In this document: piece after piece, positions 3,753 to 36,322 of the stretch | Position numbering within the stretch: position 1 is the first letter of the stretch | How the letters are laid out: the number at the start of each line of letters is the position of its first letter | DNA from: a bacterium | GTDB taxonomy: Bacteria; UBA8248 | Direction of reading: 5' to 3' | Assembly: GCA_965219955.1 (NCBI GenBank) | Contig: OZ244799.1 | Span: forward strand, 2,784,001-2,848,000 | Length of the DNA: 64,000 nt | The notes under the pieces: generated by a model | Databases searched by the model: none | Seen by the model: the letters and a program-made list of their open reading frames with translations, nothing else | What the model was told of the DNA's origin: nothing | Translations under genes and position numbers: made by a program

Positions 3753-3773
3753 GGACAACGAAAGGAGTGAACG

Positions 3774-4942: not shown

Positions 4943-4963
4943 ACACCCCACGCAGCGGGCTGC
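4943..4963 (-). other. oriT: Origin of transfer (MOBF-type nic site)
   Basis: Minus strand GCAGC-CC-GCTGC-GTGGGGTGT^ACAA: 12-nt identity to the F-plasmid nic (TGCGTGGGGTGT) with the same hairpin-then-9-nt layout; MOBF relaxase present in window. Confidence 0.8.
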
Positions 4964-5645: not shown

Positions 5646-5807
5646 GATAATACCCTCCCACATCTCCTTCCCGAGCGTCCCTCTCAGGGGGGATCATCGT
5701 CAAGCCTGCGGTATTTTTGTAGCAAAACCGCACTCGACAAGCGGAGAAATCGAGACAGGCTTACCGAATTTTCTCTTTCTCTCATGTCTCCCGCGCTGAA
5801 ATGAACT

Positions 5808-19884: not shown

Positions 19885-20235
19885 GTGACTTTGGCAATGG
19901 AAAAGAAACATCTTGAAATTAGGGGCACACTGGTTGGAAGATCAAGTTTGTTTCGAGAGCAACGCTCACATTTTGAAAATCTCGCTAAATTACAGAGAGA
20001 AAGACAAGAAGAATTAGCCGATCTATTCACTGATCCACGGGTTTTTCGGAGCAAAATCAAAAAACTGGAAAGTAAACTTCTATCGTCCGAAAAAGAAAAG
20101 AAAGTCCTCATTTCTAAGAATAAAAATCTTGAAGAACTTCTCTTGAAAGCTCACGAGGAAAAGAAAAACATTATAGCAAAACACAAAGACGAAATAGATA
20201 GACTGATGATTGCTTTGTCATTTCTCGATGAATAA
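19885..20235 (+). CDS. Low-GC coiled-coil hypothetical protein (possibly a fragment)
   Basis: K/E/L-rich heptads; AT-rich DNA unlike flanks. Confidence 0.4.
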   Translation: MTLAMEKKHLEIRGTLVGRSSLFREQRSHFENLAKLQRERQEELADLFTDPRVFRSKIKKLESKLLSSEKEKKVLISKNKNLEELLLKAHEEKKNIIAKHKDEIDRLMIALSFLDE

Positions 20236-20596
20236 TTCTAATGCTTAATTAATCCCATATTTCTTTGCACTTTTTCTGAAGAATCTTCTACCTTACATCA
20301 AATTTTTGTCTATTGTTTCATTTATATCTTCTTTGTCTTTCTTTGAATTTTCCAATTCATCTCCAACCAGTTTAATCATTTTTCTATATTTTTGCTTCAT
20401 ATCTGCCCATTTCTTTCTTTGAAGAAGTGTGTCAAGAAGCCAGTCTCTCGTGAATGATTCTCGTAAGTTGGAAATTTCTTATTTGAGATGGCTGATCGGT
20501 GTATTATCGGTCATCGTTGTAGTCGCAGTAGGAATTATATTAAAGGTCTTAAGCTAGGAAATTCCGTTCAGTCTGACAAGGTCATGAGACGGTTTT

Positions 20597-23506
20597 CTAC
20601 ATGTTCATCTCGATCCCGCGCGCTGTCCGGACCTTCTCCATTCCCGGCGCCCGGGCGGGCTCCTGCATTCGCCCTTTATCCGATCCCGGCGGTTCCTTCG
20701 CACGCCCTGCATCCCTTCCGGCCTCCGGTTCCGCCTCCCCCGACTTCACCTTGTCTCCTTCGAGTGCGTCCCGTGCGGTCTCACCGATCCCCTCAAGCGC
20801 CGATACCCGTTCGCCCGTGGCCGTTTCGAGCCGCTCGCGCAGGGCCTTTGCGTCGTCGGTCACGAGTTCCGCCCGGTCGCGGGCGCGGCTGATCTCGACG
20901 TAGAAGCTCTTCTGCGTGGTGAGGTGGGGGTGGTTCGCCTGCATCGCGGCGATCACGTTGTCGACGGTCCGGCCCTGGAAGGCGTGCACGGTCGATGCCC
21001 AAGCATGATCGAGGTGGCGCAGCTGGGGGTCGTCTTGCCTGAGTTCAAGCCTGCGCCCGTCTTCGAGGCGGAAGCTCACGCGCTCGCCTCTCACGTCCGT
21101 GACCTCAGCAGTCCGGCTGTTGACCAGCCCGAGTTTCCTGTCGTTGCGGGTCCAGCGGATACGGTCGCCGGCGCGAAGCTCGATCTCTTCGGCCCGGTAA
21201 ACCTCGGCGCCGCCCGTCCGCCCGGCGATCCGCCCGGGCTTCCATGAGACGCGCCCGCCGTCCTTGCCTTCGAGCACCACCGCCTGGTTCTCGTGATCCA
21301 CGCCCGATACGCGGAGTTCGTCGCCCTTCTCCACACCCAGGCGCTTGTAGGGGCGGTGGAAGGCCACGACGTCACCCGGAGCGTAGTTCGCGGCGAGTGA
21401 TTTCTCTGCGTTCGTATAACCGCGCGAGACGAGCCGCTCCCCCCTGAAGGCGGGGCCGTGGATACTGCCCTCCCGCGCGAGACGCTCCCGTATATGGGCG
21501 TTGATCTTTTGGCGAAGTTCATGACTGGGCGCCATGACGCCGGTGTTCTCGCGCGCCTCGGGCGAAAGAGCGAGCCAGCGCGCCGCCACCGCGCCCGCGA
21601 TGTTGTCGGCCTTCACCTGCGCGACGTTGGAGCCTAGCTTCTCGAAGGCGTTTTTGATGTCGCCCGCGAGGCTCGCCTCGACCGCGGCCTTGAGGTCCGG
21701 GTCGCGCTGGCGCAGGATATCGTCCATCACGGCGGTCTTCATGCCGGCTTGCTGGAGTTGCGCGAAGGGTTTGCCGGCGTCCACGGCGCCGAGTTGTTTC
21801 TCATCGCCCACCAGCACGACCCTGGGGATGCGCAGGGCGCGGGCGACCCGCAGGAGGTCGCGGGCCTCGCGGGTGGAGGCGAGGGACCCCTCGTCCACCA
21901 CGAGCACCGTCTTGCCCCAGGCCGCGCGCATCTGCTTCTCGGCCTTTCTGGTGAGCCTTCCCCCGGCCACGCCGGCGTTTCGCGCGAGGAAACGCTGCAG
22001 CGTCTCGCTCTCGATCCCGGCTTCGGTCCCGAGCGTCTTGACCGCCGAGGCCGAAGGAGCGAGGCCCTTGACCTCGAACCCGCGTTTTTCCAATAACACG
22101 CGGGCGCGGTTCAGCATGGTGGTCTTGCCGGTCCCGGCATAGCCCTGCACGCCGACGACGCGGTCCTTGGCCGAGAGGATGAGCTTGACCGCTTCCCTCT
22201 GGCCCTGCGTCAGCGCTCCCTTGTGCAGATGCGCCTGCACGATCCAGCTGCGCATCGCCACCCGGCCCCGGCCCTGGCCGTCGCGCATCAGCCCGATCGT
22301 CTCGCGCTCGTCCGCCAGCGCCCTGTCGGTCGTCAGGTCGTCCCTCCCGTGCAGCCCCGGCGCGGGGTGAAGCTGTCCCCCTTTTTCGAGGTCGCCAAGC
22401 GCCCTCTCCGCCGCCTCGACGGACACCGCGCCCGGCCGCCAGGCCAGCGCGGCGGCAAGCGCGTCGGCGCGGGCGAACACGGCCTCGCGCTCCGCGAGAT
22501 GCGACACGGCCCATTCCACAGCCTCTCCGGCCGAACCGGTTTCCCGTGCGGCTTCTTTGCCTTCCAAGCTGGCGACCCTTGAAGTCGCTTCGGCCGCATG
22601 GGCCCTGGCGTCGAATCCGAGGTCAGCGGCCTGTTTCTCCCATATGCCTCTGAGCGCGGACTTGTCCACGTCACGCTTGCGGGCGCGGGTCATGAGCGCA
22701 GCGCGCTCGGCTGTACGCTGGTTCTCCGCCGTCGTTCCCAGGCCCCGCTCGGCCATGGCGGCCTCGATCTCCGCCCGCCGGGTCGAGAACGCCTCGATCA
22801 CCTCGCGGCGGACGCCAGCGACCTCGAACCGCCCGTCCGCGTGCGTCTTCACAATCGCGTAGCCCAGCTTCCACAGTCCTTGCGCCAGCTCGCTCCTGTA
22901 GAGCATGCCGATCAGCTTCTGGCTGCGATAGAGCGCCTCGTTGGACATCGTCCTCCATTTCCCGTCCGGACCCCGGACCATGTTGGCCAGCACCGCGTGG
23001 GTGTGAAGCTGGGGGTCGAGGTTGCGCGAGGCGTCGTGGCGGAAGGTCGCGGCCACCGTCTTCTGGTCCCCGGCCCGGACCATGCGTCCCGTCTCCGGGT
23101 CCTTCATCCTGGTCTCCGCGGCGTGGCCCTCGACCCAGGCGAGGGTGCGTTCGACCGCCCGGTCATGGGCCTCGACGACGCGGGCGTCGCCGCCCACCAG
23201 CGAGGCGAGCGAGACGGACTTGGGGGCAGAGAAGGTGAGGTCTCGTCCGGGCCTGTGCTCCAGGACGCCGTCCTTGCGCCTGCGGCCGAGCTTTCTCCCC
23301 GACCCGTCGGGCACATGGCCCTCGAGCACCGCCTTGAAGACTTCCGGGTCGACCGGGCCCGTGAGGCCGAGGTCCTCCGCTCCCCTGCCGGCCCATGCGC
23401 TCACCTCCCTGTGGGCGGGGTCGTCTTTGGCGTAATAGCCGTCGCGCTCGTAGTAGGAGGCGCCCTGGGCGGGGGCGGCGACGGCGCCGATCGAGACGAC
23501 CATCAC
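20597..23506 (-). CDS. trwC: MOBF conjugative relaxase-helicase (TrwC/TraI type)
   Basis: SYYERDGYY tyrosines, DLTFSAPKSVS, HDASRNLDPQLHTH (HUH), helicase QGYAGTGKTT, VVDE, HAWASTVHAFQG, YVEISR. Confidence 0.95.
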   Translation of the reverse strand: MMVVSIGAVAAPAQGASYYERDGYYAKDDPAHREVSAWAGRGAEDLGLTGPVDPEVFKAVLEGHVPDGSGRKLGRRRKDGVLEHRPGRDLTFSAPKSVSLASLVGGDARVVEAHDRAVERTLAWVEGHAAETRMKDPETGRMVRAGDQKTVAATFRHDASRNLDPQLHTHAVLANMVRGPDGKWRTMSNEALYRSQKLIGMLYRSELAQGLWKLGYAIVKTHADGRFEVAGVRREVIEAFSTRRAEIEAAMAERGLGTTAENQRTAERAALMTRARKRDVDKSALRGIWEKQAADLGFDARAHAAEATSRVASLEGKEAARETGSAGEAVEWAVSHLAEREAVFARADALAAALAWRPGAVSVEAAERALGDLEKGGQLHPAPGLHGRDDLTTDRALADERETIGLMRDGQGRGRVAMRSWIVQAHLHKGALTQGQREAVKLILSAKDRVVGVQGYAGTGKTTMLNRARVLLEKRGFEVKGLAPSASAVKTLGTEAGIESETLQRFLARNAGVAGGRLTRKAEKQMRAAWGKTVLVVDEGSLASTREARDLLRVARALRIPRVVLVGDEKQLGAVDAGKPFAQLQQAGMKTAVMDDILRQRDPDLKAAVEASLAGDIKNAFEKLGSNVAQVKADNIAGAVAARWLALSPEARENTGVMAPSHELRQKINAHIRERLAREGSIHGPAFRGERLVSRGYTNAEKSLAANYAPGDVVAFHRPYKRLGVEKGDELRVSGVDHENQAVVLEGKDGGRVSWKPGRIAGRTGGAEVYRAEEIELRAGDRIRWTRNDRKLGLVNSRTAEVTDVRGERVSFRLEDGRRLELRQDDPQLRHLDHAWASTVHAFQGRTVDNVIAAMQANHPHLTTQKSFYVEISRARDRAELVTDDAKALRERLETATGERVSALEGIGETARDALEGDKVKSGEAEPEAGRDAGRAKEPPGSDKGRMQEPARAPGMEKVRTARGIEMNM

Positions 23507-25587
23507 AACCAGTCCGGCGTGCGGGACCCGGCCTCTTCGCCGTCTTCGCCCCGGTTTTGCTCATCGTCATCGGCCGCACCGGCGTCGTCCCCATCCGCGG
23601 GGTGGACCACGGGTTGCGGCGCCCCAGACTTTTCGGAGGTTTGATCGGGTCCTGCCAGGCCTGAGTCCGGCGGCGGAGCAGGTCGTTCACACTCCACTTC
23701 CGCCCCACCGTTTGCGGCCGTATCGCCGGGCGATTCGGGTTCCCGCCGATTCGCCGCCTCACCGGACTCAGGCACCCTCCCGGACTCAGGCATGTTCCCG
23801 GTATGAAAGGGTTCGGTCCCGGCGCTTTTCGCTCCCAAGACCGGCGCATTCTCCCTCGGCATGAAACTCTCGGCCGATTTCGGCCTTTTCACGTAGTCGA
23901 GCTCGATGCGGGCCACCGGCCAGGGACCGGGGAACTTGAGGTAGCCGTGCAGATTCTCGAGACGCATGATCTCCGAAGGCAGCGCGAGGGGCCGCATCTC
24001 GCGGCGCTGGGTGAGCGATACGCCGTCCCTCATCGCGCTCGCGCCGTAGCTGAGCCCCTCCGCGTACTCGGTGACCTCGCCGCGCCCCAGGCTCTCGGCC
24101 GACCAGCGCGCCGTCTCCTGGTCGGGCGCGGCCAGCACCACACGGGTGCCGCACAGGCCCGATACGGTCTCGGCGCCGTTTCGCCCATAGAGATCGCGCA
24201 AGGCGGAGATCACCTGGATCCCGAGCACGAAACACCCCCCGAACTGGCGCGATTCGGCGAGACCGGGTTGCAGGCTCGGCACCTGGTGGAGGGTGGGAAG
24301 CTCATCGAGCACAATCCATATCCTGCGCGCGTCGTCCCGGCCGAGTGAGAGGAGCGCGTTCACGGCGATCTCGAGCCAGGTCGAGATGAGGCCCCGGAGG
24401 CTCGCGTGCTGGTCACCGCGGGAGGTCAGGAACAGGAAACCGGTTTCGTCCTCTCGCTCCACCCACTCCCGGATCGAGAACGGCTTGCCTGAGTCGAGCA
24501 GGCATTCGAGCGCGCCCAGGTGCGCCGTCAGCATCGCCCGCACCGAGAGCGCGGTCTTGGGGTTCTCGGGGTCCACGATGGACTGCGCCACCGTGCCCTC
24601 CATGGCCTCGGCCAGGGAGGTGAGTTCGGTCTTGAGCAGGTGCTCGACGAGTATGCGGTTCTCCGTCACGCCGCGCTTCCACAGGACGCCCGCGCCGTTC
24701 GCGAACAGCTGCCGCGCGGCCGTGACCCAGAAGGGGTCCACCGTGTCCTTCTGCTGGGGTATCAGGGCGGCGGCCATCGTGTCGAAATCCCTGGGCGTCC
24801 TGGCTTCCAGGAAGGGCGACCACCGCGGCGCGCGGGCGTCGAGGGGATTCATCAGCACGTCGCGGGCGGGGTCGAAGAACGCCCGCGTGTAGCTCCCCAT
24901 CTTGTCGTAGAGGATGCAGCGCTCGCCCCGCTCCCTGATCTGGGCGACCAGGTCCGAGATCAGGACGGTCTTTCCCGAACCCGTGGTGCCCGAGACGATG
25001 GTGTGCTGGGTCTCGGCGCGCTCGGGCCAGGGGACGCCCGCGATGCGGGGTCTGGACTTGCGCGCCTTCGGAAAGAATTTTTCAGCCAGGCGGGAGGAGA
25101 GGGGCCGGACACGTCTCCCGAGCGACTGGGCCGATGTCATCTCCGCGCCCCGCACCCTGTGCGCGCGGGCCATGCGCCGGCCGAGAATCCAGAAGAAGAA
25201 CGCGAACAGGGCCACGCCGCACAGGCCGAGCCAGAGGCCCAGCCAGGCTTTCGAATGAATGGTGGCGAGCATGCGCCTCCTGATGCGCTCGATCCTGGGA
25301 TCGCTTGCGATGAGAGATATCCGCTCGATCGTCCGCTCGCCCGCGCCCCACTCGTAGACCTGGCCCGAATCGGGGGAATATCCGATGCCGAGCTTGGCCT
25401 CGGCCAGCGTGCCCAGGCCAATGACGCGCCACTCGTGCGCGCTCGTCGTGGTGAAGACCGTGATCGCGGGCGTCAGGACGACAGTCAGGACGAGTCCAAA
25501 AATTCCCCAGCGCGCGAGCTGGCCCCACATCCTGGCGTCGTGAAGCAGGGTCTGGCCGCCGCGCAGGGTGGCGTTTCCGATGGTCAT
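23503..25587 (-). CDS. traD: Type IV coupling protein (TraD/TrwB family)
   Basis: AAGGAG RBS before ATG 25587; two N-terminal TM segments; GTTGSGKT Walker A; WIVLDEL Walker B; ESRQFGG; acidic tail; stop overlaps relaxase start. Confidence 0.93.
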   Translation of the reverse strand: MTIGNATLRGGQTLLHDARMWGQLARWGIFGLVLTVVLTPAITVFTTTSAHEWRVIGLGTLAEAKLGIGYSPDSGQVYEWGAGERTIERISLIASDPRIERIRRRMLATIHSKAWLGLWLGLCGVALFAFFFWILGRRMARAHRVRGAEMTSAQSLGRRVRPLSSRLAEKFFPKARKSRPRIAGVPWPERAETQHTIVSGTTGSGKTVLISDLVAQIRERGERCILYDKMGSYTRAFFDPARDVLMNPLDARAPRWSPFLEARTPRDFDTMAAALIPQQKDTVDPFWVTAARQLFANGAGVLWKRGVTENRILVEHLLKTELTSLAEAMEGTVAQSIVDPENPKTALSVRAMLTAHLGALECLLDSGKPFSIREWVEREDETGFLFLTSRGDQHASLRGLISTWLEIAVNALLSLGRDDARRIWIVLDELPTLHQVPSLQPGLAESRQFGGCFVLGIQVISALRDLYGRNGAETVSGLCGTRVVLAAPDQETARWSAESLGRGEVTEYAEGLSYGASAMRDGVSLTQRREMRPLALPSEIMRLENLHGYLKFPGPWPVARIELDYVKRPKSAESFMPRENAPVLGAKSAGTEPFHTGNMPESGRVPESGEAANRREPESPGDTAANGGAEVECERPAPPPDSGLAGPDQTSEKSGAPQPVVHPADGDDAGAADDDEQNRGEDGEEAGSRTPDWL

Positions 25588-26094
25588 CCGCTTCTCCTTT
25601 TTCATACTGTCTGCATGGTGGCGCCGCGGGCGTCCTAGCCTCCCCGGAAGTTCTCCGTCCCAGAGAGGACGTCTGCGCACGAAGCGTGCTAGAGCACGGC
25701 TGTCATGTTGATGCGCGAGATTTTCCTGGGGGAGTCACTTGCCGGCCTCTCCCGGGTGGGGTGGAGACATGTTCGGCCAACCGATCCCTGGCGACTATGC
25801 CGGACGGCTTGCGAGCCGGGTCTGGATGCTGCGTCTCGATTGACAGGCCGGGGTGGTTCCGGCGTGGACTTCGATCGTATTCATGTATACGAATATAATA
25901 CGAAAATATTTCGCCGGCAACAGGTTTTAATAGGTCATATCCAACAATTTTGCTCCAAATACGCTCACACTTGCGATTTGGTGCTCAGGGACGTGACAAA
26001 AAAGTGAGAAAACGCGATGGAAGAAGACTATAGAGAATCGCTCCGGCGCGAACCGCCGGTCGCCGTCTGACGTGACGAATGTGCGAAACGTCCG

Positions 26095-29000
26095 CTATTT
26101 GGCAGCCGAGCGGCGATGGCGCACTTCGAGGACCGGAAGCTCCCAGGCGGGCACAGCGACCCGTTTTTGATATTTCGGCTCGCAGTCCTCTGCCACGCGA
26201 AATACCATCCCGAGGACGCGGACTTCATCGACCTGTTGCAACTCTGGCGGCTGCCAGCTTTCCGCCGTGGACTCCGAAAGGCGTGCCACCTGTGCACGCT
26301 CGCGATCCAGCACGAGCACCTGATCAGTCTGGTTTCGTTCCAGCTTGACCGGGTCACCGGCTTGCAGACGATCCAGCGAGCGATGCATCGGGTGTCCTTC
26401 AGGCTTCCAGCTAGCCAGGTCAATGTACAAATCCCGCATCCCGAGCAACGTAAAGCAAACATCGGCATACCCGTCTGATTGACCCTCGGCGACACCGATC
26501 TTGCGGCGGCGCAGGCTCTTCATCTCAAGCTCTCGCACATATGGCAGCGGGTCGTCTTGCCGGTCCATCAACGCGAGCGTCTCGCGCGCTCGCGTCATCG
26601 CCACATAATAAAGGCGGCGCTCTTCTTCTGAACGGTTGCGCTGGCCCACGGATGCAGGGTGAGCGCTCCCCTTCTTCCACCCGCCGCCGAGCACGATGAC
26701 ATGGGCGAACTCCAAGCCCTTCGCCGCATACACGGTTCCGAGCAGCACACCGTCGCCAACGATATGTGAGTGGCGATGATCGGCCAGGCCTCGATGCAAT
26801 GACTCCAATACGTCGATCACGGCACAAGGTTCAGCTCCGAGCTCCGACTCGAGGCCCATCAGCATGCGATCTGCCATCGCCGTCCAGAACGAGGATGCAC
26901 CGCAAATGCTTGGGAGCTGTTCACGCAACTTCGGTATCGAGACTTCAAGTGGTTCCTTTTCTTTTAGGTTCGAGAGCAGACGCTTGAATTCTCGTATGCG
27001 ATCAAGCCGCGGCAATTCGCCCCGAAGAACCCTGCGGACCGGCACACCATTGTGCTCCAAGAGCGCTCGCACCGGGGCCAGTTCATCATTTGTCCGGGCA
27101 AGGATGGCGAAACTACCCCAATCCAGCGTCGGGTCGAGCATCCGCAGGCGCTCGACCTCCGCCAGCACAGTGGCCGCTTGTGCGCCGCCATCCTCTACAT
27201 CAAGTAGCGAGACGTGTCCCTCTGCAACAGTATCCCGCGACTCCCACTTACCACCGGGAGGATCGTTTGCGCGGTCTGCGTTCACCCGAATCGAATATCC
27301 CACCTTCATGCGGTCCCGGTTATGACGGATCAACGCGTTGGACGCGTCGATGATGTGACGCGTTGATCGGTAATTCTCGACGAGGTAGTGACGTTCGGCG
27401 CTGAACTCTTCCTCGAACTGGCGCAGGAATCGGACGTTCGCATCGCGCCACTCGTAGATGCTCTGGTCGTCGTCGCCCACGGCGAGGATGGTCGCGCATC
27501 GATCACGGTCCTCGTCCGCTCGCCGGGCGATGTGGGTGATCAGCTCATATTGCCGCGCGTCAATGTCCTGGTACTCATCCACAAGCACGTACTCGAAACC
27601 CGAAAGCAGCCGGTCTCGCAGTTCGTCCGGTTCCATCCCCACCACCTGCTCTTCGCCCCGCAGCCGGCGGTTCGCCTCGTCGATAATGCCGTCAAAGTCG
27701 ATATCTTTTTGGCCCGCCGCCTCGACCCGGTCCGCTATGGACCGTTCGGTCAGTCGCAGGGCAAGAGAGTGATACGTGTAGACGGCAACCTGGCGGGCCA
27801 GGTCGCCGACAAGGTCCCGAAGCCGCACCCGCAGTTCGTGCATGGCGGAGCGGTTGAAGCAGATTACCAGGATGCGCTCGGGTCGGATGCGCTCGACCCT
27901 CAGCAGGTAGGCGCATCGATGAACCACCACGCGCGTCTTTCCGGATCCCGGGCCCGCCAGCACCAGCAGATTGCGATCCATCGGCGCGTTAACAATCCGC
28001 TCCTGGGCGTCATTGCGCAGGCTTTCGACGATATCCGCATAGCTCTCCCGCGAAGTGGCCCGTTCGAGAGATTTCGGGTCGTTGCCGAAATAGTGTCGAA
28101 TGAACTCGGGTGCAGGCAGGCTGAAGTAGCTCTGCACATAGCGGCGGCCACCGTCGAGCCCCGCCTGTGCTTCCTCCACGTAGCGCCCAATCGCGTGGAT
28201 CTGACACACGCGTTGATCGTAGTGGTCCTGAAGAGGGCGGTAGTGCCGGCTGGTGTAGCGTCCCTCCGCCTCATCCGGAAAGCGGAGGGTCATCGCTTGG
28301 CGGAAGATCGACAGGCCCTTCTGGAGCTTGATGACGTCGTGCTCGTCCAGGAACAGGAGTGTCTTCTCGATAGCGTCGAAAGAGTCTCCAATCCGATGAG
28401 CCAGTCCGAGCTGACCGTCGATGCCGCGCCGGAGGTCCTCCAATGAAAAGAGCACGAGGCGTTCACCGATCAGGCCCTCCCGCTCGGCGATTGCGAGAAG
28501 AGCTTCGAGCACCGTCTGGCTCAGTTGGACGCGCAGGTCCAATTGCTCCTGAAAGCTCGCCCAGCCGGCTTGGAACCCCACATACAATCTGTGCCTGCCT
28601 CCACTCCTCAGCGTGATGAGCGCCGGTTGACCGAAACCCTCCCGCGTCCAGCCCCCGAGAAGCTTCGAGACACTGTCCCGGGTGATCTGCACTCCTTCGG
28701 TTCGAAGGCGTTCCTGCAAGCGAGTAATGGAAAGTTGCGCGTCGACACCGGGCGTCGCGTCAGGATGTTCAGCGCACAAAAGGTCCACCAATGCTTTCTC
28801 GACCCTCACGATATCCGCCAGCCGATCGAGAGATCGGCCCTTTGTCTTGTGACGCACCCACGCCGTAAAGTAGAGCCCGCTCTCCAGTAATCCGGCGCGC
28901 GTCATCTCGTCCAGGGTACGGAGGATCTCCCGTGTCGCGGTTCGATCCCTATTCGCCGTTTCTTGGCCGACACGGGACTTGAGCGACCGAAAAGAAGGCA

Positions 29001-31350
29001 GGTGGGCGAGCTGGTCGGCGTCAATCCCTTCCCGGAGATCTACGTCTTGCAGTTTACCGATCACCTCCAGCCATCGCTGTCGTACATGCTCCGGAAGGTC
29101 AAGACCCTCAATCTTCTTCTCCGCGGTCTCTCGGTCGGGTGCCGCCGGCACACCCTGGAACACGCGGGTCTGGTTCTCGTCGCGCAGCACGAAGCCCGCG
29201 CGCTCCAGCCACGAGATCGCGGTCCGGACCTTCGTGCTGGCGGATGACTCACGCTCGTCGAACGATACCTCGGTGTCCGGCACCCGGAGGATCTCGCCCG
29301 GCGAAAGCACTATCTCCTCGGCGTCCCGACGGCGCGCCCTGCGAATCGCTCTGAGAATCTGGGACATGTCCCGCTGGGTGAGACAACCGCGCGAGGCCAG
29401 GTCGAACTGGTTCTCGATATCGCCCTTGGCGAAGAGCAGGACACAGTGCGCCGACTCGCCGTCCCGGCCCGCCCGGCCAGCTTCCTGCAGATAGTTTTCG
29501 AGCGAGCCCGGCACGTCGGCGTGCACCACAAGGCGCACGTTTTCCTTATCGATGCCCATACCGAAGGCGTTGGTCGCAACGATGACCGGCACCTCGCCGG
29601 AAATGAACGCATCCTGGACCCGCTTCTTATCGGGCGGATCGAGGCCGGCGTGGAAGTGCAACGCATTCCATCCCCGCGCCCGCAGTGCCGTCGCCAGCTC
29701 TTCCGTTCGTTTGCGCCTGCCGGCGTAGATGATTGCCGCGCCTCGCAACTCTGCGGCCGACGGTTCCCCTATGTGCTCCGCAAGCAACTCGAGGATGCGC
29801 GCACCCTTGTGGGGAGTCAGCACTTCCTCCACCGCGTAGTGCAGGTTCTCCCGGTCAACCCTGTCCGTCGCGAGCACCTCAAGCTCTTGGCCGAGTGCCT
29901 CACGGAAATGCGCGACGATTTCCTCGCGCACATCGAGCTTCGCAGTCGCGGTGAAGCACGCCACCGGAGCGGGGTCGATCCCTTCCTCCATCGAGAACTC
30001 TCGAATGAAGCGCGCCGCATACAGGTAGTCCGGACGGAAGTCGTGCCCCCATTTCGAGATGCAGTGGGCCTCGTCGAACACCCACGCGGCGATCTCGCGC
30101 TGGCGTATGGCTGCCTTGAAGGAACGCGTCCGCAGTTGCTCGGGAGATACATAAAGGAGCGCGAACCGTCCGAGCCGTATCCCTTCGAGCACATCGTGGC
30201 GCTTGGGCATGGTCAGGAGGCCGTTCAACGTGGCTGCAAGGCTCCCCCCTCCGGTCTTGCGGTTGAGGTTCTCGACTTGATCCTTCATCAGCGCCTGGAG
30301 CGGAGTGATGACGACAGTAAGCGCTCCGGTTCGCTCGTTATGGACAATGGCGGGTAGCTGGAAGCAGAGCGACTTGCCGCCGCCTGTCGGCAGGACAGCC
30401 AGAATCGGTCGTTGTTCAATGCCCCGCGTGACGATTCGCTCTTGCAGACTGTCTCCGGCGCTCGTCGCCGGGGTCGGGCGAAATCCCGGATGCCCGAAAT
30501 ACGCCTCCAGTTTGCCGCGCGGGTCGTGATGCACGGAACAGTACGCACAACCCGGGTCGTCACAACGAACGCTCCGGACCGAGCGTAGAAACCGGGCAGC
30601 GGCCGGGAATGAGCGGTGTACCCAGCGCGGCAGAATGGACTCCGTCCCGGCCACCGTAAGCCAGGCGAGAGAGTAGGCAGCGGCCGGCCGGGTCGTCGGG
30701 TCGCCCAGAAGAGACGGGAGTTCGCGGTGGATCGCGGCGGGACACGCCTTCTCACGAGAGAAGTACTCGAAGCCGTTGAGCACACGATCGCGTGACAGCC
30801 GCCGGGCACCGAGAGCTTCCAGAAAGTCGCCAGTCCCGTTCAGGTTGAGAGCCGAGACACTGCCGGGAGCATCGGAGTCGTCGAAGCAACTGCGGTAGAT
30901 GGACACGAGACCCGGCTGCTGGCGCTCCTGCTTCTCCAGGATGGCCCAGCAGTCCTCCAACAGCTGCAGCGCGAGACGGCAATCAGCGACGGGATCACTC
31001 CGTACCGCCCCGACTAGCTTGTAATCCTTGACCAGGGGGTGATACGGCCTTTGTGGACGCGCCAGCGGCGCCAGATAGAGCGTGTCTACGACGGGCAGGT
31101 CGAGGAGCGGGGACCCCGGCAAGTGGGTCTCGATGAATCGTCTATCGTGGGCGACGATGTTGTGCCCCACAACGAAATCGGCCCCGTCCGCGAAAGCGCT
31201 GAGTTGTTGGACCGCGTCACTCGACGACTCTGCATCGCGGATTCGCAACTCTCTGTCCCCTCGCAGCGCACCGACGTCCCGGATCCGGCCGTCAGCGCCG
31301 ACTTCGAGATCCAGTACGACGCACTTCTCGATAAAAGCTTTAAAAGACAC
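26095..31350 (-). CDS. Fused DEDD-like exonuclease + RecQ helicase + UvrD/Rep helicase, with possible C-terminal HIRAN-like domain
   Basis: VVLDLEV/VGHNIVAHD/DTL/DPVADC; RecQ PTGGGKSLCFQLPA, DEAHCISKWGHDFRPDY, ATNAFGMGIDK, QEAGRAGRDG; UvrD LAGPGSGKT, DEYQD, VGDDDQSIY, ENYRS, AKGLEF, EERRLYYVAMTRA. Confidence 0.9.
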   Translation of the reverse strand: MSFKAFIEKCVVLDLEVGADGRIRDVGALRGDRELRIRDAESSSDAVQQLSAFADGADFVVGHNIVAHDRRFIETHLPGSPLLDLPVVDTLYLAPLARPQRPYHPLVKDYKLVGAVRSDPVADCRLALQLLEDCWAILEKQERQQPGLVSIYRSCFDDSDAPGSVSALNLNGTGDFLEALGARRLSRDRVLNGFEYFSREKACPAAIHRELPSLLGDPTTRPAAAYSLAWLTVAGTESILPRWVHRSFPAAARFLRSVRSVRCDDPGCAYCSVHHDPRGKLEAYFGHPGFRPTPATSAGDSLQERIVTRGIEQRPILAVLPTGGGKSLCFQLPAIVHNERTGALTVVITPLQALMKDQVENLNRKTGGGSLAATLNGLLTMPKRHDVLEGIRLGRFALLYVSPEQLRTRSFKAAIRQREIAAWVFDEAHCISKWGHDFRPDYLYAARFIREFSMEEGIDPAPVACFTATAKLDVREEIVAHFREALGQELEVLATDRVDRENLHYAVEEVLTPHKGARILELLAEHIGEPSAAELRGAAIIYAGRRKRTEELATALRARGWNALHFHAGLDPPDKKRVQDAFISGEVPVIVATNAFGMGIDKENVRLVVHADVPGSLENYLQEAGRAGRDGESAHCVLLFAKGDIENQFDLASRGCLTQRDMSQILRAIRRARRRDAEEIVLSPGEILRVPDTEVSFDERESSASTKVRTAISWLERAGFVLRDENQTRVFQGVPAAPDRETAEKKIEGLDLPEHVRQRWLEVIGKLQDVDLREGIDADQLAHLPSFRSLKSRVGQETANRDRTATREILRTLDEMTRAGLLESGLYFTAWVRHKTKGRSLDRLADIVRVEKALVDLLCAEHPDATPGVDAQLSITRLQERLRTEGVQITRDSVSKLLGGWTREGFGQPALITLRSGGRHRLYVGFQAGWASFQEQLDLRVQLSQTVLEALLAIAEREGLIGERLVLFSLEDLRRGIDGQLGLAHRIGDSFDAIEKTLLFLDEHDVIKLQKGLSIFRQAMTLRFPDEAEGRYTSRHYRPLQDHYDQRVCQIHAIGRYVEEAQAGLDGGRRYVQSYFSLPAPEFIRHYFGNDPKSLERATSRESYADIVESLRNDAQERIVNAPMDRNLLVLAGPGSGKTRVVVHRCAYLLRVERIRPERILVICFNRSAMHELRVRLRDLVGDLARQVAVYTYHSLALRLTERSIADRVEAAGQKDIDFDGIIDEANRRLRGEEQVVGMEPDELRDRLLSGFEYVLVDEYQDIDARQYELITHIARRADEDRDRCATILAVGDDDQSIYEWRDANVRFLRQFEEEFSAERHYLVENYRSTRHIIDASNALIRHNRDRMKVGYSIRVNADRANDPPGGKWESRDTVAEGHVSLLDVEDGGAQAATVLAEVERLRMLDPTLDWGSFAILARTNDELAPVRALLEHNGVPVRRVLRGELPRLDRIREFKRLLSNLKEKEPLEVSIPKLREQLPSICGASSFWTAMADRMLMGLESELGAEPCAVIDVLESLHRGLADHRHSHIVGDGVLLGTVYAAKGLEFAHVIVLGGGWKKGSAHPASVGQRNRSEEERRLYYVAMTRARETLALMDRQDDPLPYVRELEMKSLRRRKIGVAEGQSDGYADVCFTLLGMRDLYIDLASWKPEGHPMHRSLDRLQAGDPVKLERNQTDQVLVLDRERAQVARLSESTAESWQPPELQQVDEVRVLGMVFRVAEDCEPKYQKRVAVPAWELPVLEVRHRRSAAK

Positions 31351-31879
31351 GGCTTGCGCGACCGCCTTTCAAGATGCTGTTGGGCTAAGAACTCGGGCAG
31401 GAGAGCGTCGAAGCAGTTCCTGTTCACTCCGTAAACGCAAAACGCAGATTATGATCATGACTACCAAACACCATCTGGGCGGTCAAGGACATAGAGATGT
31501 TGAGCCTATCGTGCCCAGTCGATCCCGAGTCCTTCCAGGCGGTGCTCGAAGCTAAGTTCTTGACGGACCACAGCACGACAAGCGAAACAAGACGGGTGTG
31601 GAGTGATAAAAATAATTGCGAATGGCCTGATCCCCTGGGTTCCTCGCCCTTTTATGCCTTGGAAATTCCCTCTATTTTCTAAGGCATTCAGTAATTTTTG
31701 TCTCAGTTTCCAATTATTTTTGTTTCCCAACAACGGTCGTGTTGCCAACCCTGCGATAGACGATATCTCAGTACTGGCAGGGCAGAACGAACCCCTGGAA
31801 CACGCGGACCTCAATCACCTCCAGGTCATCTGTTACACGCTCCCGCTTGTTCTCCGGAAAAGATAGCGGAGCGATCTTT

Positions 31880-32030
31880 TGGATCTCCGTGCCCATGACG
31901 TGGAGTTAAAAACCGTGTTTCGTCAGGTCGATGCCTATAATGTGGATTTGTTCCATGGACAAACCTCCTTCCGGGTGGTAACGACACCACCTCACCATAG
32001 TGTGATGTCCTCGGGAGGGCGCGTCCATCC
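31880..32030 (-). pseudogene. IS110/IS1111-family left end and transposase N-terminal remnant
   Basis: GGATGGACGC... end, GGAGG RBS, ATG 31956: MEQIHIIGIDLTKHGF*LH. Confidence 0.75.
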
Positions 32031-32054
32031 TTTCGTTTACCGGCACGCACGCGC

Positions 32055-32217
32055 CAGGATACGTAGGAGTTATAATTCATCCGTTTCCGATTTGATTACA
32101 TTCTGCAGAAACTGGCTTGAAAACGAGAAAGAAAACATTGAACTATCTCCAATAAAATTAACGCGATATCGAAGTATCCCAGTCGTCGACAATCCCCCGA
32201 TGTCTAAAACGGGCGGA
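32055..32217. repeat. ~160-bp dispersed element, copy 1 (att/res-like)
   Basis: GGATACGTAGGAGTTATAATTC, TTTGATTAC at 32091, GTCTAAAAC at 32202; spacing conserved with the other copies. Confidence 0.8.
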
Positions 32218-32496
32218 AGCGCCAAAAGGCAATTTGATCGAGGTGTATGTGAGGCTAAGAAAGATTTTTGTGGTCTGTTTGCATGGTTTTCTTGAAGTGG
32301 AGCAGACCATCTCATCCGACATCCAGATGGGATGGGCCTTGAAAGATCCAACGCATCTTTCGATTTAAAAGCGAGATTTTGCGAGTTATTGAGGCTTGAT
32401 TGATTAAAAACAATACCTTGGAATCATTAGACTAAGTCAACGAAACACCTTATGCCTCTGATGCGTTGAACTCCAGATTCCGAGGACTGGCAACGA

Positions 32497-32642
32497 GATG
32501 GATGCCTCCTCCCGACAACACCAAACTGTGACGAAGTGACTTCGCTTGCCGTCCTAAAGGAGGCATCCATGGCACAAGTTAGCATAGTCGGGGTCGCCCT
32601 GGAGAAACAGAGCTTCCAATTCCACGGTGCGCGCCCGAAACG
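32497..32642 (+). pseudogene. Second IS110/IS1111 left end and N-terminal remnant
   Basis: GATGGATGCC... end, GGAGG RBS, ATG 32569: MAQVSIVGVALEKQSFQFHG. Confidence 0.7.
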
Positions 32643-32802
32643 TGTCGAATTTGGCCAGAATGCGCATGGCTTCCAGAGGTACCTTCACTATGATCGGATG
32701 CCCTGCGATGGCCTCTTCCAATATTCTCTCGCGAAAGGTAAAAAGATTGCGTGGCATAGCGACACCTAACGGTTCCTAATTGGTAAAAGGCGGGATTTCA
32801 TA

Positions 32803-34029
32803 ATGGCGATTTCCACCGTAGCTGAGTTTCTCGAATGCATCGAGAGAAGCAGAAGTGACGACGAAACAGAACTTCTGTACCGTGGACAAGCCGACGCCAA
32901 ATGGATCGTGGATTGTTCTGCGGTGCGTCGACTCAGAGCCGATCATAACTTTGCGATTGATTCAACACTCATCGGGCACGCTTTGGTCGGATATTTGGAT
33001 GACCTGTTGAACAAGGCGTCACAATATGTCGGTAAGTGCCCGGAACTACCCGGAGGGTGTACCGATCTTGAAGTCCTCGCCCAGCTCCAACATCAGGGAG
33101 CAGCCACCGGACTAATCGACTTCACCTTGGAACCACTCGTGTCCCTCTGGTTCGCGTGCAGTGGGTACCCAACCGAAGACGGTGCGGTGTACGTCCTCTC
33201 CCGCTCCGACGTACAGGAAACAGATGAAGCCGAAGTTCGGGAAAACGGGGTGCTGAAATACTTTTACGGAGCTGGCACAAAAGACTGGGACGATCCTCCC
33301 TACCTGTGGTGTCCTGGTGCGATGTACGGAAGACCCGCTTCCCAAGAATCCGTCTTTATTCTGGGGGTCCCGTTTCTGTGGCCTGCTTTGCTCAATAAAA
33401 TAGTGATTGACAAGAATTTCAAGCAACCTTTACTCGAAGAGCTACGTATCGCACATGGCATCGCGGAAGAAAAGCTGTTTCCCGATCTCTCCGGTTATGC
33501 ACACGCCAACTCGGTCTCCAAACCCTTCGACATGAAGCGCTTTATTCGGTTTTGGGAAAATCGAGTAGAATGGTTTACGAACAACGCAGAGAAAGCACAA
33601 GCGTATGTCGACTGTGGGCTTGCCCACGCCGCAATCAAGCAATACGAGTTTGCCATTGAACGGTACACCGAAGCGATCACTTTTGACGCTGAGAATATAG
33701 GAGCCTACGTCAATCGTGCAAGAACGAGGCAATTGCTTGGCGACCAGACGGAAGCTCTCGCGGACTACAACACAGCGCTTCTAATGTGCGGAAGAGCGGA
33801 AGGACTTGATTCCCGGCAAATCGCTCGTGTCCACTGGAATAGAGGCCAGGCGTACTTTGCATTGGGGCAGGAAGAACAGGGTTGCGCGGACTACAATCGG
33901 GCAATAGGGCTTGGACACAAGTTGTACTTCTACGACAATGGTAAAGACGGAGCACGAATAAATGCCCACCCAGAGTACCTAGAAGAGTATAAGCCATTTA
34001 CCAATGGTGAAGACAGGTCCACGAAATAA
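32803..34029 (+). CDS. FRG domain protein with C-terminal TPR repeats
   Basis: LYRGQAD..W, QHQGAATGLIDFT..PLVSLWFAC, SQESVF, LFPDLSG; three TPR-like motifs (AYVDCG, AYVNRA, HWNRGQAY). Confidence 0.88.
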   Translation: MAISTVAEFLECIERSRSDDETELLYRGQADAKWIVDCSAVRRLRADHNFAIDSTLIGHALVGYLDDLLNKASQYVGKCPELPGGCTDLEVLAQLQHQGAATGLIDFTLEPLVSLWFACSGYPTEDGAVYVLSRSDVQETDEAEVRENGVLKYFYGAGTKDWDDPPYLWCPGAMYGRPASQESVFILGVPFLWPALLNKIVIDKNFKQPLLEELRIAHGIAEEKLFPDLSGYAHANSVSKPFDMKRFIRFWENRVEWFTNNAEKAQAYVDCGLAHAAIKQYEFAIERYTEAITFDAENIGAYVNRARTRQLLGDQTEALADYNTALLMCGRAEGLDSRQIARVHWNRGQAYFALGQEEQGCADYNRAIGLGHKLYFYDNGKDGARINAHPEYLEEYKPFTNGEDRSTK

Positions 34030-34336
34030 TTCGTGCGTATGTTGGGTCCCTTCGGCATTGTGTTTCTGTATGGCTTCCTTGGCTATCACTTCAAGAAAGT
34101 TCGGCAACTGGGGTAATGGACGACCAACACCTGAGCTATGTACTTAAGCGTGACAGCGTGGTTCGCCGCTTTCAGTTTTCAGCAAGGAATAGCTACAAGG
34201 GGATTCGAGTCATGAAATGTCCGACGTCGTACTAGGGTAGCCTGATCCGTTGCTCCACGGACCTCATGTCCGCGGCAGCCGCGGTCCTAGTGGTTATCAC
34301 AGCCCCTTTCTTACTCTCTTGAACAGGAGAACCAAC

Positions 34337-34696
34337 ATGAAGTCGCCTATTCGATCCGCAATGCTCAGCATCATGGCGCTAGCGCTTCTCACGGCTTGTA
34401 CCGCCGATATGAAAAATGAAAATGGGCGACTGACCGTAGAGTCACAGGCTCCTTTTATTGTTCCTTTCGGATTATTGCTGGCTTCTACACATACGGCAAT
34501 ACAGGCCGAGTGCAATGATATAAAAAGAAGAACAACAGATTCTGGCCCAGGCCAAGGACATGCACTTGCGCCGGATTACCAAAAGGTCACGGAATGGACC
34601 ACAGCCATTAAAACCTTCTTTGGTTTGCTTCCTATCAATGAATATAAATGGGTTGGAGAATGCGATTACGAGGGAGAGACCGCTAAAGGGAATTGA
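34337..34696 (+). CDS. Small lipoprotein of unknown function
   Basis: AGGAGA RBS, ATG 34337, lipobox LTA-C, two further Cys. Confidence 0.7.
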   Translation: MKSPIRSAMLSIMALALLTACTADMKNENGRLTVESQAPFIVPFGLLLASTHTAIQAECNDIKRRTTDSGPGQGHALAPDYQKVTEWTTAIKTFFGLLPINEYKWVGECDYEGETAKGN

Positions 34697-34699
34697 GTG

Positions 34700-34912
34700 A
34701 TGAATTACAAGGTTACATCTAAGAACAATAGGAGCAATACTATTAAAGCTAACGATGTTCGTATGCGGTTCATCGACTCAAAGCTTATGGTTGTTTTTCT
34801 GTTAGGAAGTCCTAGGCAAATTCAAATGGAAGGAGCACAGGTAAAAGCGATGTTTGAGTTCGACAATATCAAAAGCGTTGTGAGGGAGCAAATGCGAAGC
34901 TCTGACAAATAA
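34700..34912 (+). CDS. Small hypothetical protein
   Basis: Starts directly after the lipoprotein stop. Confidence 0.4.
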   Translation: MNYKVTSKNNRSNTIKANDVRMRFIDSKLMVVFLLGSPRQIQMEGAQVKAMFEFDNIKSVVREQMRSSDK

Positions 34913-35684
34913 GCGCTCCCACTAGGACCGCAATCCCCGGCGGGAGCAAACCACGAGAACACATACCTTCACCACAAAGGAGTAAGACCATGTCACATTT
35001 CAATGCTCGTGTCCTCGCGGTCCAAAAGTGTTCTATCTAAAACATCCCTCTCAAGATCCGCAGTTCCTACACGGATCCTCCCGATAATCAATGAGCGTCC
35101 CGTTTCAGCTTGAGCATGGCTCATCCGCGACCTTCTCCACGTTATAAACGGGTGACTCATGTTCGACCACTTTGACGAAAGAGTAGCGGGACCTAGCGTG
35201 CTCGAATGCGCGCTCGCAGGCATTCTCGTGAGCCGAGAAGGTCGTGATTTGCAGCAGATACCCGCCGTCGACGGCAGCTTCTACTCACCATTCTTCGCCT
35301 AGGTTTTGAACGATCCTGTAAGGGAAGTCGTCGGTAGGCTCATGGATAGCTTCTCTTGGGGGCTCAAGTTTGAACACCTTGGCATGGGTTTTAAGTTTGC
35401 CCATGAGGAAATACTTAGCTAGCTAGGTCAAAAGACCCATAGTATCGATTTAATATGAACTTGATGTGCCTTTTGCGGTGTTATCATGGTTTAAATATGA
35501 CCATTCATGGCGCGGGCGTCATTTCCCGCGGCCTGGAACTCGTAAGCGGTCGATCTGTAAAGTCCGGTGAACTATTCGACGAGGAGACGTAGTGATCGAT
35601 CCATATCCACCGAATCCCGAGGCGAAAGCGTTCAGGCGGTGCATCTCAACGCTCAGCATGTCCATCCCATCGGTTACGATTTGC

Positions 35685-35902
35685 GGCCTGTTAGGAGGGG
35701 TCGTTGCCGAGCCCCTCCTAACAGGCCCGACTTGCCCGCCCTAGGATACGCAGAAGTTTGATTTCGCCCACTTCCGATTTGATTACGTATTGCAGATAAG
35801 CAAATCCCCAACGAAATTCCCAAAAACGGATACCCGCAATAATATCAACAAGCTACAAGAATTCCCCACCCGCTGGAAACAACCCACCGTCTCAAAACAC
35901 GC
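35685..35902. repeat. Dispersed element, copy 2, with preceding 16-bp perfect hairpin
   Basis: GGCCTGTTAGGAGGGG-N11-CCCCTCCTAACAGGCC (35685-35727); GGATACGCAGAAGTT; TTTGATTAC 35778; TATCAACAAGCTA (IHF-like); GTCTCAAAACAC 35889. Confidence 0.8.
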
Positions 35903-36304
35903 GGCAACAACTCCGAGCGAAAGCACCGCCCCGCCCCCGACCTGTCCCGCGTCCGGGGAACACCAATCCGCACCGCACCGACACCCGTCAAAACCTCCCG
36001 CGACGGCAGGTAGCCGCCCAGCACCACCGCGCGACGGCCTCGCGTGTCTCGCTCGGTAGAATGCTCTTCCAGAAAGGTCCCCAACTCCGCTTCCACCGCC
36101 CGGCGGATGATTCGCTGCGCGCCTTCGCGCACCAGTTCGCTCAACTCCTCTCGAAAGGCTGGATTCGTAAAGGGAATCGTCGTATCTTTGTGCATGGTGG
36201 CGCATCTCCTGTTTGCTGAATGACAGGGCTTCTCACAACCCCATTCCAGCAGGAATGCGCCGCCTTCTTCAATTCAACCCATACACAAGATCTGAGGGTA
36301 ACTC
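35900..36304 (-). mobile_element. Truncated IS256-family element (left end plus about 98 N-terminal codons)
   Basis: End GAGTTACCCTCAGATCTTGTGT (from 36304); ATG 36195, LSELVREGAQRII..AVEAE...GYLPSREVLTGVG..VPRTRDR...FRSELLP then break. Confidence 0.85.
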
Positions 36305-36322
36305 CATAATATAGTGTCCTCC

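Follow-up and report, generated by a model that had tools for sequence, protein, structure and literature searches.

The stretch considered here, 64,000 nucleotides of contig OZ244799.1 (assembly GCA_965219955.1, positions 2,784,001 to 2,848,000) from a bacterium of the UBA8248 lineage, is called the window throughout. Its minus strand carries a long gene, below the fusion gene, whose product combines a predicted exonuclease, a RecQ-family helicase, a UvrD-type helicase and a C-terminal domain modelled with a HIRAN-like fold. In window coordinates, the gene and the parts of its protein (residues given as aa) are as follows.

26095..31350, minus strand: the exonuclease-RecQ-UvrD-HIRAN-like fusion gene, 1751 aa, with a GTG start at 31350 and the stop codon at 26095-26097
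30901..31350, minus strand, aa 1-150: predicted DnaQ-like (DEDD) 3'-5' exonuclease fold (structure model and conservation)
30451..30900, minus strand, aa 151-300: predicted helical connector with a conserved Cys/His cluster (AlphaFold2 helices and alignment)
29410..30447, minus strand, aa 302-647: RecQ-family superfamily 2 (SF2) helicase core (Pfam DEAD and Helicase_C; TIGR00614)
28036..29388, minus strand, aa 655-1105: family-specific linker region, with no domain matched
26569..28014, minus strand, aa 1113-1594: compact UvrD-type superfamily 1 (SF1) helicase core (Pfam UvrD-helicase, AAA_19 and UvrD_C)
26098..26478, minus strand, aa 1625-1751: predicted HIRAN-like domain (structure model and conservation)

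The fusion gene is real, intact and subject to purifying selection. Its frame, translated from the window, is open across all 1751 codons with no internal stop. In an alignment of 170 family sequences that includes the window protein, used for all conservation counts over the family below unless a smaller set is named, this protein has the conserved residue in 289 of the 291 columns where conservation among the other 169 reaches 95% or more, and hence the window copy is intact and not decayed. An earlier note, made from the sequence alone, described a single-chain reading frame at 26095-31350 between a coupling-protein gene and an FRG-TPR gene, and both the list of open reading frames and the Pfam assignments of the neighbours agree with it.

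Relatives of the gene do include damaged or divided copies. One genus copy, in genome G028 (G028:C4:3486462-3491546, loci L094/L099), is broken by a single in-frame TAG, and the homologue on the Nostoc punctiforme plasmid pNPUN02 (L084, 7001-11392) is annotated as three consecutive coding sequences, 'RecQ family', 'UvrD-helicase domain' and '3'-5' exonuclease'. These are the points in favour of a chance reading frame or a decaying, non-functional fusion. For the window copy this reading was rejected and keeps practically no probability, given the open frame, the conserved columns and the more than 100 full-length relatives at 44–83% identity.

The RecQ-family core is matched by Pfam DEAD (aa 302-474, 95 bits) and Helicase_C (aa 533-631, 70.5 bits), both above the curated cut-offs, and it is a member of the NCBIfam RecQ-family subfamily TIGR00614 (285.7 bits against a cut-off of 219.8, aa 283-647). 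The SF2 motifs can be read directly: Walker A TGGGKS at 322-327, DEAH at 426-429 and the arginine-finger motif QEAGRAGRDG at about 621-630, with G325, S327, D426, E427 and H429 invariant in the family. The RecQ equivalog models are missed (TIGR01389, 337.3 against a cut-off of 640.2; NF008279, 257.2 against 1015), and Pfam searches with the whole protein (E ≤ 1) and with aa 660-1100 (E ≤ 10) list no RecQ zinc-binding, RQC or HRDC family.

The second core is matched by UvrD-helicase (from aa 1113, 155.5 bits against 23), UvrD_C (to aa 1594, 71.1 against 25.6) and AAA_19 (79.5 bits). The SF1 motifs GPGSGKT (1133-1139), DEYQD (1258-1262), VGDDDQSIY, NYRS, KGLEF and VAMTRA are readable. G1137, K1138, D1258, E1259 and Q1261 are invariant, and the tabulated Walker and DExx positions are invariant or nearly so. 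The equivalog models of this type are again missed: 199.7 against 911 for pcrA, 180.5 against 1144 for uvrD, 159.9 against 951 for rep and 143.7 against 543 for helicase IV, while the RecB and AddA models of NCBIfam match the core weakly, all far below cut-off. Since every equivalog (RecQ, PcrA, UvrD, Rep, helicase IV, RecB, AddA) fails widely, the two motors are of the RecQ family and of UvrD type and are orthologous to none of these.

The N-terminal segment gives no Pfam or PDB match as a single sequence and none of significance when a 68-sequence profile is compared with the PDB; RNase_T of Pfam matches two of the 68 relatives (best E 0.002) and no family matches the window segment itself. 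The fold was recognised when aa 1-300 were modelled with AlphaFold2 from an alignment of 68 relatives; the predicted local distance difference test (pLDDT) score is 92.4. The top Foldseek matches of this model are Escherichia coli Pol II exo, a TREX1 homologue, a Cas2-DnaQ domain, Staphylococcus aureus DinG and RNase T (probability 1.00, E about 2e-3). The VIA-align comparison gives Z 13.3 for S. aureus DinG (9ii8_A, 233 residues aligned), 11.5 for Pol II and 10.3 for Pol III epsilon, with Exo I and Cas2-DnaQ also between 10 and 13.3. By structure comparison, the modelled segment has the RNase H-like exonuclease fold of the DEDD superfamily.

The acidic tetrad is conserved in all rows that are filled at the position, D14 in 158 of 158, E16 in 159 of 159, D69 in 169 of 169 and D123 in 170 of 170, the assignment of these residues to the Exo I, II and III motifs being by sequence pattern and fold, without residue-level superposition. 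At least 168 of the 170 sequences also conserve each of H63, N64, D89, Y103, H104, K108 and P120. Judging from the model, aa 1-150 are likely an active DEDD nuclease.

The connector that follows (aa 151-300) contains conserved C203, C263, C268, C271 and H275, which may form a zinc site; the fold searches with the model of aa 1-300 scarcely covered the residues beyond about 181. The linker between the two motors has no Pfam match at E up to 10 and a best Atlas value of 0.79, and its 47-sequence profile finds nothing in the PDB at E ≤ 0.01, the sole listed match having E 0.081. The best matches of the segment profile searches against the PDB, an HIV gp120 chain (E 0.021) and an outer-membrane protein (E 0.081), were taken as chance.

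The C-terminal domain shows nothing significant in single-sequence searches of Pfam and the PDB; the best Atlas value obtained with it is 0.82, probably from the family's own fragments, with no HIRAN or other family. The structure model of aa 1596-1751 (pLDDT 89.5) is more informative. Among the 48,161 chains of the VIA-wide comparison only three reach Z 5, and all are HIRAN domains: lp_0118 (3k2y_A, Z 9.1, root-mean-square deviation 3.3, 97 residues aligned), HLTF HIRAN (4xzg_A, Z 7.2) and Rad5 (6l8o_A, residues 174-293, Z 6.9); the following chain has Z 4.9. All 13 Foldseek matches listed among ranks 1-15 are likewise lp_0118 (3k2y), HLTF HIRAN or Rad5, with E between 0.015 and 0.12, none of them reaching 0.001. 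A canonical Pfam-HIRAN profile made from proteins of the window's genus matches 3k2y with E 1.8e-9 and HLTF with about 2e-6, so the three top structural matches are true HIRAN domains. With Z 9.1, 7.2 and 6.9 against 4.9 for the next chain, structure comparison assigns the modelled domain the HIRAN fold.

In place of the canonical HIRAN loop the family conserves H1656 (59 of 68 members), G1665, S1692, W1699, R1718 (60 of 68), W1736, E1737, P1739 and E1742; W1736 and P1739 are invariant, and L1636, G1665, L1691, S1692, W1699, E1737 and E1742 are at least 90% conserved. A profile of the domain compared with 1.84 billion representatives finds 1036 proteins at E ≤ 1e-3, and the best 150 of these are all members of this helicase family or their fragments, with the domain at the C-terminus. 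At another place (G000:C1:3939776-3939985, L087) the same genome, like four others of the genus, encodes a canonical Pfam-HIRAN protein (E 1.8e-9, with an open frame of about 267 aa), whose sequence is not related to the C-terminal domain of the fusion helicase.

Of the architecture proposed in the earlier note, the complete SF2 RecQ and SF1 UvrD motif sets in one chain are confirmed by Pfam, TIGR00614, the readable motifs and their conservation. The N-terminal DEDD-like nuclease is upheld at the level of fold, by the DnaQ-like structure matches and the conserved acidic tetrad. The suggestion of a C-terminal HIRAN domain stands for the fold, where the only matches with Z of at least 5 are HIRAN, and fails for the sequence (Pfam, hhalign) and the signature loop, as detailed below. 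We therefore call the domain HIRAN-like in its modelled fold and do not count it as a HIRAN member, since the fold matches but sequence and loop speak against membership.

The family is patchy, has been exchanged between phyla, and is found on plasmids and islands but not in phage records. The 120 best relatives of the protein are 44–100% identical to it and 118 of them have both PF00270 and PF00580; full-length relatives reach 83% identity. Members have a length of about 1750 aa, and 'RecQ family helicase' is the only name given to them. A scan of species-representative genomes gave 599 pattern matches, 586 of them confirmed, and the 80 loci kept span the Pseudomonadota, Thermodesulfobacteriota, Verrucomicrobiota, Actinomycetota, Planctomycetota, Bacteroidota, Spirochaetota, Chloroflexota and others, the family as a whole being spread over at least a dozen phyla. 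Among plasmid records, 22 have copies with a query coverage of 80% or more, at 34–39% identity, and 128 of the 152 plasmid carrier records are typed as non-mobilizable. None of 50,697 phage records holds 80% or more of the query, and a phage origin was rejected on this ground.

Within the phylum of the window, full-length copies occur in five of 51 species genomes, all of one genus (about five of its 23 genomes), and none is more than 40% identical to the window copy. The genome itself has a second full-length paralogue, 39% identical to the window copy (G000:C1:1889785-1894848, minus strand, L096). Beside this paralogue lies a gene for a protein of 1000-1176 aa with weak helicase similarity, shared with G028 at 89% identity.

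The nearest relatives of the window copy are from Gammaproteobacteria (74% and 69%), Acidimicrobiia (65% and 61%) and Planctomycetota (63%), and in a FastTree phylogeny of 74 full-length proteins it falls with relatives from these groups in a clade of eight with 100% support. The paralogue and two genus relatives (79–88% identical to one another) cluster with plasmid copies of Thiothrix, Cereibacter and Allochromatium, so that the two copies of this genome belong to different well-supported clades. Phylum labels change 20 times on the tree, against a minimum of 11. A 14-member clade from a single family, the Methylococcaceae, looks partly vertical. The copies of two metagenome-assembled genomes, one of Gammaproteobacteria (L066) and one of Bathyarchaeota (L069), are near-identical, with end branches of about 0.05, which is either a very recent cross-domain transfer or a binning error. 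Inheritance of the homologues as vertical core genes, set beforehand as the outcome that would count against the proposal, is not what we see: phyla are mixed in the tree, the occurrence is patchy and there are plasmid copies.

This distribution bears on one alternative role, that of a horizontally spread DNA-repair or fork-rescue enzyme acting on the host chromosome, which would combine the functions of WRN (exonuclease with RecQ), FBH1/UvrD (protein clearance and fork reversal) and HLTF/Rad5 (capture of the nascent 3' end by HIRAN), reverse stalled forks and trim nascent strands. The set of modules matches fork-remodelling toolkits, conservation is strict at the two ATPase sites and in the DEDD tetrad, many family members sit amid housekeeping genes, and the Methylococcaceae clade would suit such a role. 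The patchy occurrence in the phylum and the genus, the two divergent copies in one genome, the mixing of phyla and the copies on plasmids and islands argue against it, and conjugative elements do not as a rule carry core repair genes as strain-specific cargo. We consider it somewhat unlikely.

The surroundings of the fusion gene were mapped by DNA searches of the window against 22 genomes of the same genus and the genome itself. The features of interest are as follows.

2566-5726: 'module A', a multi-copy segment
6603-17994, plus strand: Hma-type defence cluster, encoding a SNF2, Helicase_C and NOV_C protein (1154 aa), a DUF1156 methylase-like protein (1027 aa), a 358-aa open reading frame and a DUF499 ATPase (920 aa)
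10064-11257: YhcG PD-(D/E)XK nuclease gene, inserted after the first gene of the Hma-type cluster
20597..25680, minus strand: TrwC relaxase (20597-23506) and TrwB coupling protein (23503-25680), assigned by Pfam, downstream of the fusion gene and on its strand, with a gap of 414 bp
26068..35754: strain-specific cargo segment of 9.7 kb with the fusion gene, a low-GC spacer, the FRG-TPR gene and small open reading frames, delimited by DNA comparison
32803-34029, plus strand: FRG-TPR gene (Pfam FRG and TPR), divergent from the fusion gene and 1452 bp from it

The segment 26068-35754 is not covered in any of the 22 genus genomes among the matches listed, and homology to G026, at 96%, restarts at 35755. 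On the other side, positions 20586-26067 (TrwC, TrwB and about 400 bp more) form a multi-copy module found at 75–93% identity across the genus in many copies, the own genome included. Its homology ends at 26047-26067, that is, 28-48 bp before the stop codon of the fusion gene. Some 20 kb ahead of the window there is a further TrwC/TrwB copy with 90% identity (G000:C1:2758568-2763863).

Module A, likewise multi-copy, belongs to the same element family; two other genomes have it 12-15 kb from TrwC/TrwB copies, as does the window. It lies within about 3 kb of the paralogous helicase at three of the four genus loci examined (2.7 kb at L096), and the chance of such proximity is estimated at about 5% per locus, with some tens of copies in a 4-Mb genome. 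From the proximity of module A and the mapping of TrwC/TrwB it follows that within the genus the family is repeatedly cargo, and not backbone, of one conjugative-type element family. Module A itself contains overlapping open reading frames on both strands, of which the plus-strand one (3774-4727) is better conserved, 83–91% amino acid identity against 62–76% for the antisense frame; plasmid genes under its tblastn matches are annotated as DUF2493.

The Hma-type cluster sits between module A and TrwC/TrwB, on the same element as the fusion gene, and its DNA has matches in only one genome of the genus, G029, at 75–79% identity. PMC11232893 reports HmaA-type defence against T4 and other defence genes inserted inside hma clusters. 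The GC content is 0.47-0.50 at 18000-20000 and 32000-36000 (0.50 at 32-36 kb), against about 0.62, and these two regions flank the block of TrwC/TrwB and the helicase. At the junction of strain-specific and conserved DNA a sequence of about 400 bp (35901-36304) is repeated many times per genus genome at 80–90% identity; it has no Rfam family, and its 140-aa open reading frame has no plasmid match. The fusion gene is thus strain-specific cargo of a conjugative-type element, with an Hma-type defence system as further cargo, and the mobile-island setting described earlier is borne out by the strain-specific segment adjoining the multi-copy TrwC/TrwB module.

Such a location raises the possibility that the protein serves the mobile element, aiding the establishment, replication or recombination of a plasmid or an integrative and conjugative element, or countering host nucleases or defence, for instance by processing the transferred strand. 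The fusion gene is located 414 bp upstream of trwB-trwC on the same strand, the genus paralogue loci tend to have module A nearby (three of four, as given above), and 22 plasmid records carry nearly complete copies as defined above; multi-domain helicase proteins of conjugative elements are discussed in PMC5512222. On the other hand, at 83 homologue loci from other taxa, considered with 10-kb flanks, TrwB, TrwC and module A are each found at none. The relaxase and the coupling protein therefore do not qualify the family as a backbone component. Moreover, most TrwC/TrwB copies of the genus have no fusion gene, their homology ending just before it, and the majority of plasmid carrier records are of the non-mobilizable type. 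This role is, in our estimate, quite unlikely.

Nor does the fusion gene appear to act with its neighbours in the window. When 13 neighbour proteins were compared by tblastn with the 83 loci, no relative of TrwB, TrwC or FRG-TPR was found, and only generic SNF2/helicase similarity and one HmaA-like gene (in L016) turned up; TrwB, TrwC, FRG-TPR and the ten other proteins were rejected as partners for lack of recurrence. All-against-all clustering of the 917 flank open reading frames, each of at least 90 aa, yielded no neighbour at a fixed position. The biggest non-self cluster is of the response-regulator type, at 15 of the 83 loci, and the next recurrent neighbours are short-chain dehydrogenases/reductases, ABC ATPases and histidine kinases, with DUF4143 ATPases and Fic also present. 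A Pfam census of the 149 nearest open reading frames at 69 loci spreads over 147 families, none with more than three members, the commonest being DUF4143, PIN and AAA_14 (three each), followed by N6_N4_Mtase, ResIII, Fic, HNH_2 and DUF5615 (two each). Of these, PIN, N6_N4_Mtase, ResIII, Fic and HNH_2 are of toxin-antitoxin or restriction type.

A multi-gene system of which the helicase is one component, together with FRG-TPR, the small upstream reading frames or TrwB/TrwC, would be suggested by proximity in this window only. With the neighbours shared by none of the 83 loci, no position-fixed cluster and the nearest genes scattered over so many families, it is close to refuted and very improbable. 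That the gene stands alone, without conserved partners, had been noted from the sequence, and the survey agrees: no neighbour family recurs beyond very common ones. In the 1.45 kb upstream of the start we see no convincing gene; a scan for promoters and terminators gave no signal above shuffled controls, and Rfam has no family across 25500-36500.

The plasmid copies have more suggestive surroundings. The seven annotated plasmid loci contain a type I restriction-modification system with HNH, CRISPR I-D with WYL, RES and BrnT toxins, a methylase-helicase pair, HipA, VapC/Phd, several transposases and an integrase. Restriction-modification, CRISPR or toxin-antitoxin genes are within about 7 kb at six of the seven, the seventh having transposases only, in a setting, plasmids, that is generally rich in such genes. 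From these surveys the picture is that of an accessory gene that stands alone and whose surroundings are in many cases, though not in all, mobile or conflict-rich.

The individual modules are familiar, and several known systems resemble parts of the protein. WRN of eukaryotes has an N-terminal DEDD-type 3'-5' exonuclease followed by a RecQ-family helicase in one chain, and this order is common to WRN and the fusion protein. The latter, however, adds a UvrD-type SF1 motor and a HIRAN-like domain and has no RQC or HRDC found by Pfam, its family is bacterial, mobile and patchy, and WRN is not among the structural matches listed for the N-terminal domain, the best of which are DinG, Pol II and epsilon-type. 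RecBCD, AddAB and AdnAB combine two motors and a nuclease into one machine for DNA ends; they are multi-subunit, pair SF1 with SF1 and use PD-(D/E)XK nucleases. The fusion protein likewise combines two helicase-type motors with a nuclease, but in one chain, with SF2 and SF1 motors and a predicted DEDD nuclease.

DinG is a chromosomal stress-response gene. In S. aureus and B. subtilis its product is a DEDD exonuclease fused to an SF2 helicase, and the S. aureus protein ranks first among the structural matches of the modelled aa 1-300; the helicase of DinG is of the XPD/Rad3 type and not RecQ, and DinG has neither a second motor nor a HIRAN-like domain. With HLTF and Rad5 (PDB 4xzg, 6l8o) the modelled C-terminal domain shares the fold and the fusion to a DNA motor, and lp_0118 (3k2y) is a bacterial HIRAN of the same fold; in HLTF/Rad5, however, HIRAN is N-terminal to a SNF2 translocase, whereas here the domain is C-terminal to an SF1 helicase, with neither detectable sequence similarity nor the conserved N-x-Y-D-x-N-A-I loop. 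DpdF, PsyrT/RqlH and GajB have similar helicase cores according to PADLOC, but the matches span one motor and part of the model (e.g. 14-352 of 610).

Among studied enzymes we found none in which a single chain combines a DEDD exonuclease, RecQ, UvrD and a HIRAN-like fold. The literature gave no description of such a fusion, although supplementary candidate lists of defence-discovery papers and the neighbourhood tables of PMC11232893 may name the family. The earlier note knew of no characterised system with this architecture, which accordingly holds, with that reservation, and a match to a named system, set there as a refuting outcome, was not found, PADLOC offering partial cores only.

Our best inference is a stand-alone enzyme that would unwind and degrade DNA from 3' ends. 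We tentatively favour the reading of it as a four-module enzyme with an accessory, conflict-related (defence-like) role, without regarding this as the settled answer. The C-terminal HIRAN-like domain, perhaps with the linker, would dock on a free 3' end or on a junction of single- and double-stranded DNA. Both motors, which are of families translocating 3'-to-5' on single strands, would unwind or remodel the duplex, possibly pulling in opposite directions on the two arms of a fork, and the N-terminal exonuclease would digest the freed 3' strand. The targets could be foreign DNA with exposed 3' ends, either replicating or just entering the cell, for example intermediates of rolling-circle or recombination-dependent replication, or transferred single strands. 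An attack of this kind on foreign DNA would make the protein a single-gene defence-like system carried as cargo of a mobile element.

The proposed mechanism is centred on 3' ends and forks because the polarities of the families, the exonuclease of DinG and the HIRAN structures all point there. According to PMC12525004, the DEDD domain of B. subtilis DinG degrades single-stranded DNA 3'-to-5'. RqlH, which is RecQ-like, is described as a 3'-5' translocase, and FBH1 as a 3'-5' translocase of the UvrD family that reverses forks. By their titles, the PDB crystal entries of HLTF HIRAN are with single-stranded and with duplex DNA.

A number of observations weigh against this reading. The fifth residue of DEDDh and DEDDy exonucleases, a His or Tyr in Exo III placed four or five residues ahead of the last Asp, is missing: in the family alignment position 118 is N (92 sequences) or S (75) and position 119 is D or N. 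Exonuclease activity is therefore likely but unproven. The invariant Y103 and H104, in a low-confidence loop near the one low-confidence stretch of the model (residues 110-115), might substitute for this residue.

At the other end of the protein, Pfam HIRAN (PF08797) does not match the window segment and matches one of 68 relatives (E 0.22), and hhalign against a thin, five-sequence HIRAN alignment gives a probability of 0.6% (E 0.1). HIRAN of HLTF binds the 3'-OH end of DNA, and its N-x-Y-D-x-N-A-I loop lines the 3'-end pocket. The motif is present in lp_0118 and HLTF, but its counterpart in the fusion protein, aa 1673-1679, is variable among 68 family members, so that 3'-end binding by the C-terminal domain is an analogy and not a finding. 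In the model the domain is HIRAN-like in fold, with HIRAN membership not supported by sequence.

The genomic evidence adds to these points. Most nearest neighbours at the 69 chromosomal loci are metabolic and regulatory housekeeping genes, in a census that had no matched control, and by the same census enrichment in defence islands is not demonstrated. No model of PADLOC-DB v2 (2023) covers the fusion, the matches being to helicase cores only: DpdF (E 3.8e-103, aa 281-654), PsyrT (2.4e-77), GajB (3.7e-51), RTasHel and a Cas3-like model. Finally, the set of modules fits fork repair equally well. With the neighbourhoods mixed, a defence role is plausible and not shown. The phrase 'strong candidate antiphage/antiplasmid system' from the earlier note is not supported as it was put, the commonest census families having two or three members in mostly housekeeping surroundings, with no matched control.

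The boldest version of the defence-like reading, which we regard as unlikely as it stands, is a new single-polypeptide immune or surveillance enzyme carried by elements and plasmids, in which HIRAN-like recognition of 3' ends or junctions, two opposed 3'-5' motors and DEDD destruction would act together on invading or runaway replicons. Other roles, including unnamed ones, share what is left after the conflict-related, repair and element-serving readings.

Beyond the features described from the sequence alone, the present analysis adds the HIRAN-like fold of the modelled domain, the second paralogue in the genome and the placement of the gene as cargo on a multi-copy conjugative-type element with an Hma-type system. 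The architecture is uncharacterised, yet the family is common, with the 586 confirmed stretches among species-representative genomes. If the defence or surveillance role is true, a single-gene, end-sensing mechanism would be added to the known repertoire and bacterial immunity would be linked to the eukaryotic fork-remodelling toolkit; as an immune enzyme, the protein would correspond in function, in a single polypeptide, to end destruction of the RecBCD type, assembled from eukaryote-like fork-remodelling parts (WRN, FBH1, HLTF). If the role is in repair, it would be a horizontally moving bacterial fork processor of the WRN/HLTF kind. Either way, the family would offer a compact, testable model of two helicases of the same polarity cooperating with a nuclease.

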